A DNA stretch of 26,789 bases from a virus (lineage: Duplodnaviria; Heunggongvirae; Uroviricota; Caudoviricetes), in the IMG/VR virus record IMGVR_UViG_3300003155_000137, positions 110,629 through 137,417 of that record. One strand, written 5' to 3'. The position numbers were made by a program, and so were the translations under genes. Below are positions 15,395 through 22,215 of the stretch, one piece after another. How positions within the stretch are numbered: position 1 is the stretch's first letter; each line of letters opens with the position of its first letter. Under the pieces are notes generated by a model. The model made no database searches and was not told where the DNA came from. It worked only from the letters and a program-made list of their open reading frames with translations.

Positions 15395-16336
15395 TCATCG
15401 GATGAGCGAACCGACATAGGTCATGTCAACATCATCCTCGTCGAACGCCCTGCTGTGATACACGAGTCTCGACCTGTCGGCCCGCTCCAGAACATCGCGC
15501 ACCAATCTTGAACGGCTGGAGTCATCGGTCGGAACCGGCCTGCCCTTGAGGAGGATGCCCTTCAGCACCGACCTGATCGACTTCACCTCAAGGTAGTGGT
15601 CGGACTTGACCTTGACCATCCACCCGTCCGCGTAGTAGAGGACGACGCCCTCACGGTCGCTTGATTGCGCGTCGGCTATCGCCTTCTCCAGTTCGTCCCG
15701 GTCATGGCATTCGCGCAGCACCTCGGGACGGTCGAAGTCGAACGATTCGGCTATCAGCCGTTCCGCGTCCGGGTCTATGCCGAACGCCTCCGTGTTGCGG
15801 ATGCAGTGCAGGAAGAACAGGCGGCTATGGTCGTAGCCGACGATGTGCCTATCCGATTCCATGTCCACGACCTCAACGGCCATCGTCACGTTCCGGTCGT
15901 GCAGGATACGCCACGGTTCGCTTTCACGTCCCGCAATCCTCTCGTGCAGGAGCCGTTCGATGAGCGGAGAATAGTCGGTCCGCCCGCTCTTCGACCAGCA
16001 ACGGAGACGCCCGTCGGGGGCGGCACCGACCAGTCCGAGGAACCCGTTCTCCTTGCTCTCCACACGAACCGGGTAGGCGTCATGGCCCAGCACCTTGTCG
16101 GGGGTCACGGTGTCGTTCTCACCGAGGTTGAAGAACTTGTCGAATCCACGCATCACCACCCGCCCCTCATGGTCGAGGAACAGGCCACGGGCCTTCGACG
16201 AGTATTCGTCCCACCTGTGATTGACGAAGGCGTCACGGGTGAAGTTGCAGGCGTACACATCCGATTCGCCATCGACCGGACGGACACGCACGTTCGGGTT
16301 GGCCCTCATGCCGTCAAGCAGATTACCGTTGTCCAC
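15395..16336 (-). CDS. T4 Rnl1-like RNA ligase
   Basis: NFTRDAF...WD...ARGLF...RGFDKFFN, motif I KENG, EGVV and VKVKSDHY. Confidence 0.85.
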   Translation of the reverse strand: MDNGNLLDGMRANPNVRVRPVDGESDVYACNFTRDAFVNHRWDEYSSKARGLFLDHEGRVVMRGFDKFFNLGENDTVTPDKVLGHDAYPVRVESKENGFLGLVGAAPDGRLRCWSKSGRTDYSPLIERLLHERIAGRESEPWRILHDRNVTMAVEVVDMESDRHIVGYDHSRLFFLHCIRNTEAFGIDPDAERLIAESFDFDRPEVLRECHDRDELEKAIADAQSSDREGVVLYYADGWMVKVKSDHYLEVKSIRSVLKGILLKGRPVPTDDSSRSRLVRDVLERADRSRLVYHSRAFDEDDVDMTYVGSLIR

Positions 16337-16337
16337 G

Positions 16338-17027
16338 TCATTCCCCTTGGATGATCTGCATGATTGTTCGGTCGCTTACCGGTGCCATGTCCCACGCATC
16401 GACGCCGACGTTGAGCATCATCGGGTCGCCGAACTCGTCACGGTCCTTCGCATGGGTGTGCCCGTGGAGCAGCACAAGCCCATCGACGCGCGGAGGGGCG
16501 AAACGGCGGAGCCTTTCCGCCAGCGCGTTGGTCGAAAGACCATCGGGAACCGGTAGGTCGAACATGTCACGATACGGGAAGTGCGACAGCAACACCGGCA
16601 TTCCGTCCGAAAGCACGTCAAGGCCAATCGGGGAGACGACCGAGAACAGCCCGGCCCACCTTACGTAGTCCTTCCTGTCGTGGTGGAGCAGGGCGTTCTC
16701 GTGGTTGCCCAGGATGAGACGGCGGCGTTTGCGCGGGATGTTCAGCATCCTAATCATCGCCTCGGCCTCCCTCATGCTTCTAGAGCCTCCGGACGACACG
16801 TCCCCCAGCACGGTCAGCGTATCATCGGCGGAACATCTCGAGTTGATGGCATCGACCAGGTCGCGGTCGTGCCTCTCCCAGTCGACCGCATCCCACAGGT
16901 CGACGCCGGCCTCCAAGCACTCCTCGCGGATGGTCGCATCATTGGGCCATCCGGGCTCCGCATAACCGCGCAGCGCGGCCACGAACGGATGCCCGAAGTG
17001 CAGGTCCGATGTATACCAGTTGGTCAT
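16338..17027 (-). CDS. Calcineurin-like metallophosphoesterase
   Basis: Motifs TSDLHFGH, LGDVS, LGNHE, LSHFPY and LHGHTH. AAGGTG RBS before the ATG at 17027. Confidence 0.88.
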   Translation of the reverse strand: MTNWYTSDLHFGHPFVAALRGYAEPGWPNDATIREECLEAGVDLWDAVDWERHDRDLVDAINSRCSADDTLTVLGDVSSGGSRSMREAEAMIRMLNIPRKRRRLILGNHENALLHHDRKDYVRWAGLFSVVSPIGLDVLSDGMPVLLSHFPYRDMFDLPVPDGLSTNALAERLRRFAPPRVDGLVLLHGHTHAKDRDEFGDPMMLNVGVDAWDMAPVSDRTIMQIIQGE

Positions 17028-17028
17028 T

Positions 17029-17358
17029 TCACCTTCTTTCGTCAATTGGAGTGTGGCGATCTAGCGCGGCGTCGATTACCTTCCAAGCATCGACCACGAA
17101 GACGCCGCGCTCCCACGGGGCGTGCGCGTCTCAGACATCATCAACGTCCTTCCGCGTGGGAGGGGTGTTGGCGAAGTTGGCGCTATTCGCCATGAGCTGC
17201 TTGGCCGCGCGGATTGCTGGCTCAGGAGCGCAATGCAGAACGTGCTCGTAGTAGTATCTGACATAGGCGTATCGGTTGCCGCAGGAGCACCCGATCGTCC
17301 CTATCCCGTGGTCGTGTGTCTGCTCGTGGCAGAACTTCGGGATGTCGATGTCCACCAT
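17029..17358 (-). pseudogene. Hypothetical gene interrupted by an in-frame TGA at 17131-17133 (nonsense change or readthrough)
   Basis: AAGGAGG RBS and ATG at 17358. The frame continues 33 codons past the TGA to a stop 1 nt before the phosphoesterase ATG. Confidence 0.5.
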
Positions 17359-19015: not shown

Positions 19016-19149
19016 ACCATCATCATAAACGACAAACGGAACGACCCCATATCTTGACACTCCCGTGATTGAAATCACGAGATTCCTGCGAACTGGGCTT
19101 GCTTGGCTTCATGTTCCCATATAGTCAGAGGCTTCCCATGTTGAGCAGG

Positions 19150-20352
19150 CTACCCCCGATTGTCGGTCGGTTCTTTCACGTTATGAGTTGTTTGGCTTAT
19201 TCGCAATGCTTCGTCCCGGATGTTCAATGCGGCATTGACATCCCGGTCGTGCCATGCCCCGCAGTGTTCGCAGACCCATTCGCGCTCCGAGAGTCTCAGT
19301 CCCTCGTATTTGCGCCCGCAGTCGTGGCAGAGTCTGGAACTTGGGTAGAACCTGTCCACTTGGACGAACGTACGACCATACCATTCCGCCTTGTATGCGA
19401 GCTTGTCCATGAACCCTCGCCACCCGTCTCGTAGGATGGCATGGTTCATCACGCGCTTGCGTGACTGTCCGTTGCGCATCGGCTTGCCGTCCGCGTCGAG
19501 CTTCCTTCTCGCGCGTCGAGTCATGTTCCGCACCATCAGGGTCTCCATGCCGATGAATTGGTTCTCTTCTATCAGCCTGCGGGACGTCTGATGCTGGAAG
19601 TCCTCACGGTAGTGGCGCAGTCTCGCGTACGCCTTGGCGACGGCTTGTCTCTGCTTGCGGTAGTTGCTTGAGCCTTTCCTCCTTCGTGAGAGCTTCCGCT
19701 GCTCGCGTCTGACGTTCACCTCCAGTCGGCGCAGACGGTCGGGGTAGTCGATTTTCTCCCCGGTGGAGAGCGCGATGAAGTCCTTGACACCCACGTCGAT
19801 GCCGACCTGTCCTTCGACGGGTGGCTTGGGTTGGATGTCCACGTCGAACAGGAGCACGAGATAGTATGTCCGGTTCTCCCGTTTCACCGTCCAACTGGAT
19901 AGCGATTCGATCGGGTAGCGTAGCTTATCGCGTCTGCGAATGCGCACCGAGCCGAGCTTCCTGGACAGGGGATACCGGTTGCCTTCCATGCGGCGCATCG
20001 GCGCAGTGTTGCGGAACGACTGGACGTTGTCATGCCGGGATGCGAACCGGGGACGGTTGCGGGCGTACTCCGACTTGCGGAAGTACGCCGCCCGCGCTTT
20101 ACGGAAGTCCATGATGGCGTTGCTCAATGCGTTCGACGGAATCGGACTGTCTCTCAGCCATTCGTTCGCCCGCTTCATGTCCGTCACGTTCGGATAAACG
20201 GGTTTCGGATTGGTCTCCTTGTTGAACGTGTTGAACGCCTCGACCTGCTGGTTGTATGCGAAACGTCTATCCCCGAAGCATCGTTCCAACAGTGCCGCCT
20301 GCGTCTTCGAGGGCTTGAAGGGAATGCGTTGTGCGACCTTGCGAACCGTCAT
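19150..20352 (-). CDS. tnpB: RNA-guided endonuclease TnpB
   Basis: N-terminal HTH (KPSKTQAALLERCFG). RuvC residues present: GIDVG, GMETL, DRDVNAALNI. Zinc finger CHDCG/CEHCG. ATGA overlap with the tnpA stop. Confidence 0.92.
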   Translation of the reverse strand: MTVRKVAQRIPFKPSKTQAALLERCFGDRRFAYNQQVEAFNTFNKETNPKPVYPNVTDMKRANEWLRDSPIPSNALSNAIMDFRKARAAYFRKSEYARNRPRFASRHDNVQSFRNTAPMRRMEGNRYPLSRKLGSVRIRRRDKLRYPIESLSSWTVKRENRTYYLVLLFDVDIQPKPPVEGQVGIDVGVKDFIALSTGEKIDYPDRLRRLEVNVRREQRKLSRRRKGSSNYRKQRQAVAKAYARLRHYREDFQHQTSRRLIEENQFIGMETLMVRNMTRRARRKLDADGKPMRNGQSRKRVMNHAILRDGWRGFMDKLAYKAEWYGRTFVQVDRFYPSSRLCHDCGRKYEGLRLSEREWVCEHCGAWHDRDVNAALNIRDEALRISQTTHNVKEPTDNRG

Positions 20353-20468
20353 TCCGCGTCGCGCTCCTTTAACCGTTGTCCGTCGATGTACTTGGCGACC
20401 GCATCCTCCTTCGTCGTGCCGATGCTTTCCACGAAGTAGCTGGGAGACCAAAGGCACAAGGTCACGGC
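20349..20468 (-). pseudogene. tnpA: 3' remnant of IS200-type Y1 transposase
   Basis: LWSPSYFVESIGTTKEDAVAKYIDGQ is the typical TnpA C-terminus including the catalytic Tyr helix. An in-frame stop lies just upstream, and the HUH region is missing. Confidence 0.85.
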
Positions 20469-20507
20469 TCAGTGCCGTAGACCGATTCGTATTGTCGAAC
20501 CGGCCGG

Positions 20508-20592
20508 CGGATGGTGCAGGATTCGGACCTGCGGAACCTCTCGGTTCACCTGTTTTCAAGACAGGCGCGTTAGACCGCTCCGCCAACCATCC
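20508..20592 (-). tRNA. trnS: tRNA-Ser(UGA)
   Basis: Acceptor GGAUGGU/ACCAUCC, anticodon arm CCUGU-CUUGAAA-ACAGG, long variable arm GAACC-GAGA-GGUUC. CCA not encoded. Confidence 0.92.
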
Positions 20593-20869
20593 ATGCCTGA
20601 CTTTCTCTCCGGCCGCTCAGGCTACGACCCGCACGTACACCGGCTTCACATGATCCACCGGCGCGTGGAGAGTGGCGGGAGAGCGGATTGGGTTTTACCG
20701 CCAGCGTCGAGGACAACGGTGCCTGTCGTATGCACCCTCTGGACGTGCCATCCGTTCAGGCCGCTAAGCCAAAGTCCGCTAAGACCCGGATGCGCCTTAC
20801 CCCCACCGTTCCGACGGGGTATTCGGCCACTCCCATGACGATGGACGGGTCGTCACCCATCCACCATCG
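20593..20869 (-). ncRNA. Candidate structured ncRNA between tRNA-Arg(UCU) and tRNA-Ser
   Basis: Nested 9-bp helices and twin UUAGCG-loop hairpins. Wobble pairs work only on the minus strand. No credible ORF. Confidence 0.55.
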
Positions 20870-20942
20870 TGCCCCGAGCCGGACTCGAACCGGCAACACG
20901 CGGATTAGAAGTCCGCTGCTCTATCCGTTGAGCTACCGAGGC
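20870..20942 (-). tRNA. trnR: tRNA-Arg(UCU)
   Basis: Cloverleaf with GCGGA-CUUCUAA-UCCGC anticodon arm and T arm GCCGG-UUCGAGU-CCGGC. Confidence 0.93.
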
Positions 20943-20945
20943 AGT

Positions 20946-21109
20946 GACGGCTCCGCACCGGGATTCGCACCCGGACGGGCCTTCGATCCGTTTGCAGCAG
21001 GCGCCCATCGTGTGCATCCACGACGTGTCTCCTGTGTCAGCCCCTTCGGATGCGGTAGTGCTATAGTATGCCGCATCCTGGAATGACTTTTCCACCATAC
21101 GGAGCCGTC
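20946..21109 (-). ncRNA. Candidate tRNA-like ncRNA between the two tRNA-Arg genes
   Basis: 12-bp closing stem next to a CCGGG-UGCGAAU-CCCGG T-arm, plus internal hairpins. Confidence 0.55.
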
Positions 21110-21110
21110 G

Positions 21111-21183
21111 TGCCCACGAGAGGAATCGGACCTCCGACACCCGCTTTAGGAGAGCGGTGCTCTATCCACTGAGCTACGTGGGC
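21111..21183 (-). tRNA. trnR: tRNA-Arg(CCU)
   Basis: Cloverleaf with CCGCU-CUCCUAA-AGCGG anticodon arm. Confidence 0.92.
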
Positions 21184-21271
21184 AATGGGTGGTGGATTGA
21201 TGTCGAACCGCATCATCGAGTGTGGGCAAACGACCTGCTTGACGCGGACGAAGGCATCGCACCATCACCAG

Positions 21272-21345
21272 TGGGCTCGGCTGGGCTTGAACCAGCGACC
21301 TGCATTTTATAAGAATGCTGCTCTAACCTACTGAGCTACGAGCCC
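21272..21345 (-). tRNA. trnI: tRNA-Ile(UAU)
   Basis: GGGCUCG/CGAGCCC acceptor, A73, anticodon arm GCAUU-CUUAUAA-AAUGC. Confidence 0.9.
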
Positions 21346-21375
21346 GCATCGACCGTCCCCGGCCGACATCGGATT

Positions 21376-21407
21376 ATGTTACTACCGAATCGGCGAAGCG
21401 CAAAATC
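21376..21407 (-). promoter_or_regulatory. Promoter GATTTTGCG-N17-TAACAT for the tRNA operon
   Basis: About 30 nt upstream of tRNA-Ile. Same motif and spacing as 17393..17424. Confidence 0.55.
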
Positions 21408-21459
21408 ACCCGGCGTTTCCCGATTCGCCGGCTCCATGGATCATCCGACACCTCGCCGT

Positions 21460-22035
21460 TCATTCCACGCGCTTCCGCAACCTATCCATCACCGTGTGGT
21501 ATTCGGAGATGTCGTTGGCCAGACAGGTGGTGACGCGGTGGTCCGTTTCGAGTCGCTCGACCCCAAGCTCCAGACGCTCCGACATGAGCGACACCGTCGA
21601 CATGTCCAGTCTGCGATGCGAGGTGTGTGATTCAAGTTGCACTTCGGGCAGCTTCTCGGTGATCCACGACACGTCGAACTGCGGGTTCCTTCCGGCGATG
21701 CGAAGCTCGTCGAACATGGCGGACGCCGCATCGAGGTACTGGTTCATCTCGATGACCTCGCCCCTGATGATCGATGCGATCTCGCATCCGGGTTTGTCGG
21801 AGACGCACGCACAGAGCAGACCGTTGGTCGAGTGCATCCCGGCAATCGCGCCGAGCGTCGTCTCATTGACGTCCAGACTGGTGTGCGGAATCACCCAGCT
21901 CGCCACGTCTCCCTTGGCCGGATTGCCCAGCGAGTCGGTGACGCACATCCCGACCTCAAGCAGCTCCCCGTCACACGGGGCGATCGCGGTGGTCTCCACA
22001 TCCACCCACAGCAAACCGACATCATGCATGTCCAT
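21460..22035 (-). CDS. Oligoribonuclease (Orn)-like DEDDh exonuclease
   Basis: LLWVDVETT...LEVGMCVTD, AGRNPQFD and SHRRLDMSTV. GAAAGGA RBS before the ATG at 22035. Confidence 0.8.
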   Translation of the reverse strand: MDMHDVGLLWVDVETTAIAPCDGELLEVGMCVTDSLGNPAKGDVASWVIPHTSLDVNETTLGAIAGMHSTNGLLCACVSDKPGCEIASIIRGEVIEMNQYLDAASAMFDELRIAGRNPQFDVSWITEKLPEVQLESHTSHRRLDMSTVSLMSERLELGVERLETDHRVTTCLANDISEYHTVMDRLRKRVE

Positions 22036-22215
22036 CTGTCCTTTCCGTATCACCTGACGGACAACCATGTTAGCACCGTTCCGGACGCGACACGCCGGAG
22101 TGCCGAACGCCATCCCGGAACACCGTCTGGAGACTCGGTGCGGACGCCTGAATCAAACTAGAATTGATGGTGTATGCAGGCATGCCCAGATGCCATCACG
22201 ATTGGAGAACCACCT

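Follow-up and report, generated by a model that had tools for sequence, protein, structure and literature searches.

A 167-nt spacer between two tRNA-Arg genes of a gut phage probably encodes an accessory structured small RNA (we put this reading at about 60%), held in a slot of the tRNA operon whose terminal clamp is conserved and whose interior is swappable cargo. The window, by which we mean the whole 26,789-nt stretch analysed, forms the final 26.8 kb of a complete virus record of 137,417 bp. The phage major capsid protein (MCP) shows 37% identity to those of Mycobacterium cluster C-type myoviruses, and DNA nearly identical to that of the phage turned up in metagenomes of chicken gut and of faeces from 11 studies, habitat being assigned solely from runs that contain at least half of the sampled words. 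The host is probably a high-GC, actinobacterial species of the chicken gut.

ARAGORN and Rfam agree on four tRNAs on the minus strand of the window: tRNA-Ile(UAU) (21345-21271), tRNA-Arg(CCU) (21183-21110/1), tRNA-Arg(UCU) (20942-20869) and tRNA-Ser(UGA) (20592-20506). Genome-wide, tRNA genes fall at 54673-55003 and 131134-131973 (G000 contig C1). All seven phage tRNA genes encode the discriminator and then a single C, not a full CCA, and in the tRNA arrays a stable hairpin starts directly past that C. For tRNA-Arg(CCU), upstream of the element, the discriminator A is 21111 and the single C 21110; the element, which is the 167-nt Arg-Arg spacer (20943..21109, minus strand; 164 nt plus an ACU tail) and is single copy in the genome, begins at 21109. 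Pairing within the element ends at 20946; A-C-U (20945-20943) comes next, and G+1 of tRNA-Arg(UCU) follows directly. These coordinates agree with the tight fit described in a previous, sequence-only reading, in which the RNA starts 1 nt past the Arg(CCU) discriminator and ends 3 nt before Arg(UCU). Because the element lies between two tRNAs, processing of both flanking tRNAs must release it. We looked for promoter-like or terminator-like sites in the element and the other inter-tRNA spacers and found none; the sole terminator-like match in the operon (20534-20547) lies on the opposite strand, within tRNA-Ser. A coding reading is excluded by a 1-nt indel in one relative (L081) and by the overlapping ORFs, all of which run across the tRNAs.

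The ends of the element are closed by a terminal stem of 12–13 bp, the clamp P1, in which 21109-21098 pairs with 20957-20946. Its 5′ strand (GACGGCUCCGUA, 21098..21109, minus strand) is identified by folding, by shuffles and by a homologous stem in a relative, and its 3′ strand (UGCGGAGCCGUC, 20946..20957, minus strand, followed by unpaired A-C-U) by folding and by an adapter junction in an RNA library, both described below. The 12-bp end stem with its trailing unpaired A, as first read from the letters, is thus present, and in none of 20,000 shuffles do the two ends pair over such a length. The folding energy of the 167-nt spacer is −82.4 kcal/mol, compared with −58.4 ± 4.2 kcal/mol in shuffles (z = −5.7); the opposite strand folds worse (−75.4 kcal/mol), and six G.U pairs of the tRNA-strand fold would become A.C on the other strand. 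Both the minimum-energy and the RNAalifold folds form the clamp, the hairpin H3 (GGAUGCGG/CCGCAUCC, 21048..21078, minus strand, with an invariant 15-nt loop) and the invariant hairpin H5 (CGUCGUG-GAUGCA-CACGAUG, 21006..21025, minus strand). Four hairpins had been listed for the interior, and complementary segments exist for all of them, but UGGAA/UUCCA and ACGG/CCGU, like the T-arm, give way to alternative pairings in both folds. A discrete structured RNA on the tRNA strand is supported. The invariant 15-nt loop was also searched for complementary sites in the phage genome; none matches with two or fewer mismatches, the best having three. Within a predicted helix, the facing element positions 27 and 70 (window 21083 and 21040, minus strand) are hypervariable, reading U/C, G/C, C/U and G/A in seven haplotypes, with only one combination able to pair.

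Directly abutting the 3′ strand of P1 is a T-arm-like hairpin of tRNA-type sequence, CCGGG-UGCGAAU-CCCGG (20958..20974, minus strand), which is invariant in all haplotypes. A 7-bp acceptor-like CUCCGUA/UGCGGAG within P1 here adjoins a 5-bp T-stem and a 7-nt T-loop (U54, C56, R57, A58; G53-C61), departing from tRNA by a G, not U, at T-loop position 55 and by a stem 5 pairs longer (12 versus 7 bp). Folding gives the hairpin no energy support: forcing it costs ~7 kcal/mol, and it is absent from the thermodynamic fold, so the T-arm stands on sequence likeness only; because energy models ignore T-loop tertiary structure, that fold does not exclude it either. The proposed T-arm abutting the stem is real in sequence and position, and its 17-mer is shared with real tRNAs, but its ensemble pair probabilities are ~0. 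The exact 17-mer has 48 occurrences on 46 IMG/VR stretches. Some are T-arms of phage tRNAs (Leu, Glu, Gln, Met) that ARAGORN recognises; the others belong to tmRNA-like 3′ ends of the type ...CUCCACCA. On none of the 46 stretches is the 17-mer accompanied by the stem of the element or by an upstream segment that pairs. It is not found in any tRNA of this phage, so the T-arm is not a recent local duplicate. As side observations, viral contigs often carry the 17-mer CCGGGTGCGAATCCCGG with its G55 in the T-loop (L003-L048, IMG/VR); a single 120-kb phage (L027) carries three tRNAs with this T-arm; and the tmRNA-like 3′ ends that contain CCGGGTGCGAATCCCGG continue ...CTCCACCA and are probable integration sites.

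Searches against known RNA families gave no assignment. Rfam, run in gathering and E-value modes, the latter also on the element alone at E ≤ 10, returned no credible match; RF00005 on 20943-21110 had no match at E ≤ 10 (model threshold 29 bits); and ARAGORN at default settings called no tRNA in the element, from which a D-arm with GG (G18 G19) and a 5-bp/7-nt anticodon arm are both absent. A tRNA-Cys(GCA) cloverleaf with a 74-nt insert, obtained with relaxed ARAGORN settings (-ps80, intron up to 130 nt), was rejected: its D-loop lacks GG, and comparable calls arise in 2,238 of 3,000 interior shuffles (75%) with stem and T-arm held fixed. The tmRNA candidate was likewise rejected, since ARAGORN (including -m) called none, the tmRNA clan gave no match at E ≤ 10 and the third pair is C-G, not G3:U70. 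The manA model (RF01745) does not match the element. Y RNA, which the sequence-only reading had given as an example of a known family whose recognition would undo it, also fails. The YrlA model (RF02553) reaches 20.6 bits, compared with a gathering score of 69, in an alignment that runs into tRNA-Arg(UCU), and the other weak YrlA matches overlap tRNAs as well. YrlA RNAs are encoded within ~4 kb of a same-strand Ro60/TROVE gene (PMC4201824), and a six-frame search of the whole 137-kb genome found no TROVE/Ro60 gene (PF05731), with Deinococcus and Bacteroides controls positive. The motif GNCGAAN0-1G near the YrlA 5′ end is a putative Ro60 site (Chen et al. 2014, PMC4201824); a regular-expression search did not find it in the element.

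Relatives were found through the exonuclease-like gene (217 aa; 21460-22113, minus strand) that lies immediately upstream of the array; its homologues span 37–92% identity, and their contigs were compared. Those that reach the array keep both Arg tRNAs in order behind the first tRNA. In the close clade the Arg-Arg slot holds a 167/168-nt element, in six haplotypes at 95–96% identity. Other contents occupy the slot elsewhere: a 66-nt hairpin in L069, whose neighbour protein is 52% identical; a 60–61-nt hairpin with a 12–13-bp stem in the 37–40% clade (L067 and L072-78); and, in L065, whose contig is otherwise close clade, a 40-nt hairpin (2220-2259) unrelated to the element, with which it has only the first 2–3 and last 6 bases in common. 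Every insert in this slot is a stem-closed hairpin. That a near-identical relative carries the 40-nt hairpin instead shows the cargo to be exchangeable and dispensable. The L069 stem, by comparison, is homologous to P1, with 10 of the 13 first bases in common and two both-sided pair changes, U-A to C-G and C-G to U-A. The slot comparison across relatives thus identifies the terminal clamp of each spacer as the conserved, covarying feature, whereas the ~140-nt interior arose or was acquired in one shallow clade and is replaceable.

The same clamp design closes other spacers of the array and of related phages. The 87-nt Ile-Arg spacer next to the element (21184..21270, minus strand) is stem-closed, with a closing stem that covaries with the L069 version; the Ile-Arg spacers of relatives' arrays are also stem-closed, with a pair that changes from G-C to A-U between clades. 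The 87-nt spacer has a fold z-score of only −1.4, and its identity across relatives (98–100%) exceeds that of the element and is about that of the tRNAs (97–100%, the exceptions being the swapped first tRNA of L081 and the tRNA-Ile of L052 at 94.7%). The element, at 95–96%, lies above the neighbouring gene (92–94%) and the unstructured gene-Ile spacer (82–92%); the manA spacer, discussed below, ranges from 91 to 99%.

Within the interior helices, G.U-compatible transitions are about as frequent as A.C breaks, and RNAalifold within the clade finds no interior pair with both-sided changes. One H3 pair (3-6′) reads A-U in the window; four haplotypes have A.C at this place, L081 has G-C and a contig from an RNA run has G.U, and the 15-nt H3 loop is unvarying while this pair changes. 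The pattern of substitutions indicates some constraint on the interior, short of proof of a selected structure. An absence of structural conservation, which the sequence-only reading had named as grounds for refuting it, holds only in part: the closing stem is conserved and covarying, whereas for the interior no such conservation was shown.

The element family was found solely in this one shallow clade. The exact 39-mer from the element 5′ end had no match in IMG/VR, and the invariant H3-loop 19-mer none in metagenome, genome and viral collections. A blastn search ('distant') in 50,697 phage records, with the array region as query, gave tRNA matches only, and the covariance model R1 found no element in four other large phage genomes plus 77 loci. 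Neighbouring proteins were also used as queries: the 217-aa protein as sole query returned no relatives in IMG/VR, and nor did an alignment of the exonuclease there; an alignment-based metagenome scan produced 60 distant exonuclease loci, only one with tRNAs nearby; and the RNA ligase of this phage retrieved only a 420-kb phage, whose 45-tRNA array is without the element. The element looks optional and lineage-specific, and tRNA mimicry does not look demonstrable.

Four metatranscriptome runs were compared over 20480-21420 (941 nt), a stretch in which contig gaps are no evidence of absence. In one run, X17, a 173-nt contig with a word depth of 266 covers 20946-21094, the remaining stretch being uncovered bar a depth of 1–4 on part of tRNA-Arg(CCU); cover so nearly confined to the element argues against DNA carry-over. 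In this contig, 20946 is preceded by 24 letters that we take to be the end of the Illumina universal adapter plus one C. This adapter junction places the start of the library inserts at most 1 nt from the last P1 base pair, the extra C fitting no explanation offered. The insert-derived part is 150 nt, equal to one read length, which makes the far contig end uninformative. The contig retains the whole 3′ strand of P1 and has no CCA. In a second run, X15, a low-depth contig (21139-20981) joins the element to 30 nt of tRNA-Arg(CCU), as is expected of a precursor.

The next spacer of the operon, between tRNA-Arg(UCU) and tRNA-Ser, holds a known structured RNA, manA (RF01745; 20672..20855, minus strand). 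It scores 53.6 bits here, and the gathering score of 55.2 bits is exceeded in the relatives L062 (58.8) and L065 (56.2). In marine cyanophages and gamma-proteobacteria the motif has been described as a putative 5′-UTR element (PMC2864571); in this gut phage it adjoins two tRNAs flush. Whole short contigs of 168–188 nt, matching the span of the motif, were assembled in three RNA runs, which suggests that manA RNA is here a processed stable RNA. Assembled contigs prove neither strand, level nor true ends, and as such these are a hint that the element and the manA cargo both accumulate as discrete RNAs.

These data can be joined into a scheme built on layout and on established tRNA processing. 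The element would be co-transcribed on the minus strand with tRNA-Ile(UAU), tRNA-Arg(CCU), tRNA-Arg(UCU), manA RNA and tRNA-Ser, as the gene order and the one bridging RNA contig suggest. Maturation of the Arg(CCU) 3′ end would create the element 5′ end, probably by an endonucleolytic cut of the RNase Z type, given the lack of an encoded CCA and the stable hairpin right after C74. RNase P, acting at G+1 of tRNA-Arg(UCU), would create the 3′ end, and 3′ exonucleases may then remove the ACU tail as far as P1, which would agree with where the adapter joins the contig. Acting in cis, the clamp probably stops a long spacer from disturbing the folding and cutting of the adjacent tRNAs and would present both junctions for cutting; afterwards it may protect the excised RNA and so allow the accumulation at which the RNA-library depth hints. 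The interior, with its acceptor-like segment and T-arm, appears from sequence to be partly of tRNA origin and is young, swappable and non-essential.

Genes that could act on such an RNA lie close by. The 217-aa upstream protein has a likeness to DEDD-type 3′-5′ exonucleases: it falls in a PHROG annotated as DNA polymerase exonuclease subunit, and a relative has a weak match to Rv2179c-like PF16473. Its gene adjoins the Ile-Arg-Arg array down to 37% identity, and homologues at 27–35% lie away from tRNAs; a role in 3′ trimming of tRNAs or spacers is possible. An Rnl1-type RNA ligase (PF09511, E = 1.8e-29) with an adjacent phosphoesterase (15395-17045, minus strand) lies 4–5 kb downstream of the array.

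The sequence-only reading had proposed a tRNA-like decoy or scaffold matured by RNase P/Z, possibly a sink for anticodon nucleases or tRNA sensors. What stands of this is a discrete structured RNA with a library contig that ends at most 1 nt from the stem; the mimic, decoy and sink are not supported. That a tRNA mimic acts in trans, as such a sink or as partner of the ligase, phosphoesterase and exonuclease genes, we consider improbable. The 7-bp acceptor-like segment abutting the T-arm, the identity of the 17-mer to real T-arms, the presence of all three enzyme genes within 6 kb on the same strand and the abundance of the RNA in one metatranscriptome are all in its favour. The tRNA, tmRNA and YrlA models, however, are all without a match, the D-loop GG and anticodon arm are missing, position 55 of the T-loop is G, and the minimum-energy and consensus folds do without the T-arm; moreover, the relaxed cloverleaf recurs in three-quarters of interior shuffles, the RNA contig keeps the 5-bp stem extension and carries no CCA, and L065 is a near-identical natural relative without the element. 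A related version makes the slot a plug-in site, whose clamp lets tRNA processing excise and stabilise any cargo, the present cargo being a trans-acting RNA with an acceptor/T-arm module; this cargo might act as a decoy that draws off tRNA-targeting defence nucleases, or it might work with the adjacent exonuclease, RNA ligase and phosphoesterase, and we regard this version, too, as improbable.

A decaying tRNA remnant or plain spacer, derived from a former tRNA gene or a captured 3′ half, is a lesser but appreciable possibility. Here only the clamp would matter, the interior being tolerated junk that is transcribed and stable by chance, as is suggested by acceptor-like and T-arm traces without other arms, by near-neutral substitutions in the interior helices, by the replacement or absence of the interior in relatives and by an adjoining Ile-Arg spacer better conserved than the element. 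Against this, the element is kept at 95–96% while the unstructured gene-Ile spacer falls to 82–92%, its fold is stable far beyond shuffles, one helix pair has passed from A-U to G-C via intermediates beside an invariant 15-nt loop, and the T-arm, matching no resident tRNA, is not a recent local duplicate. A DNA-level origin, as a miniature inverted-repeat mobile element or recombination cassette, is very improbable. The 12-bp terminal inverted repeats, the presence/absence polymorphism revealed by L065 and the insertion of a tnpB element nearby in the same operon would fit it, but the element is single copy with no copies found elsewhere, its ends show no visible target-site duplication, the repeat has G.U pairs and variants that can pair only as RNA of the tRNA strand, and the closing stem is ancestral to the slot (as L069 shows) and was not brought by the insert. 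The accessory small RNA that we favour has evidence against it as well: interior substitutions are close to neutral, L065 shows dispensability and the family spans a single shallow clade.

Among known systems, the closest analogue of the element appears to be T4 RNAC/RNAD (species 1 and 2), which it resembles in kind. Both are small non-tRNA RNAs inside a phage tRNA cluster on the tRNA strand, and the element, without a promoter or terminator of its own, fits this type. The T4 RNAs are made with the tRNAs of the T4 tRNA region, their roles still unknown (PMC3014915, PMC9697503); they have no sequence similarity to the element, belong to a different host group and have mapped ends, whereas the ends of the element are hinted at from contigs. 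YrlA likewise has a terminal stem formed from its 5′ and 3′ ends and a T-arm-like hairpin; some YrlA RNAs are phage-encoded, and that of M. smegmatis is cut by RNase P (PMC4201824). Unlike YrlA, the element has no D stem-loop, carries G not U at T-loop position 55 and sits in a genome without TROVE/Ro60. It matches the tRNA/tmRNA domain in 7-bp acceptor-type pairing followed by a 5-bp/7-nt T-arm, but differs from it in 5 extra stem pairs, in having no D-arm, anticodon arm or G3:U70 and in an RNA contig without CCA. The manA RNA is similar as a structured RNA in a tRNA-tRNA spacer of the same transcript with a discrete short RNA-run contig, although manA is an old, widespread family (PMC2864571) and the element occurs in a single shallow clade only. 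Leader-trailer helices of rRNA operons are akin to P1 in that pairing of the flanks joins the cargo ends and defines the excised unit; P1, at 12–13 bp, is shorter than classical RNase III stalks, and with tRNAs as flanks, RNase P/Z cuts would suffice.

Comparison allows the closing stem, which covaries, to be told apart from its cargo, of which one slot has four different kinds; manA, a known family, fills the next slot of the operon, and public metatranscriptomes appear to contain the excised RNAs. Most useful in the analysis are the comparison of slot and clamp and the neighbouring manA; for the element itself, a narrow and dispensable RNA, the pay-off is modest. If the slot-and-clamp arrangement is general, tRNA operons would naturally serve phages for expressing and processing small RNAs, and the manA RNAs of such phages would be stable products of processing, not 5′-UTR regulators.

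The first tRNA of the array, Ile(UAU) in most relatives, is called Met(CAU) in the close relative L081 (2354-2428), and such calls recur in the close relatives L070 (3897-3971), L071 (1767-1841) and L083 (3313-3388); besides L081, four Met(CAU)-first contigs were seen, all of which stop before the Arg-Arg slot. The two versions occupy the same position at ~81% identity in an operon that is otherwise conserved, and the UAU/CAU anticodon swap possibly marks a lysidine-type tRNA-Ile2. A tnpB-only IS605-family element (OrfB_IS605 plus a Cas12f1-like TNB domain; 19050-20443, minus strand) replaces 481 nt that in relatives comprise the rest of the Ser-Leu spacer and tRNA-Leu(GAG), so that this phage has lost tRNA-Leu(GAG). 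The distant relative L067 carries a resolvase-tnpB pair and a Transposase-2 RNA (RF03015) a few kb from its array.
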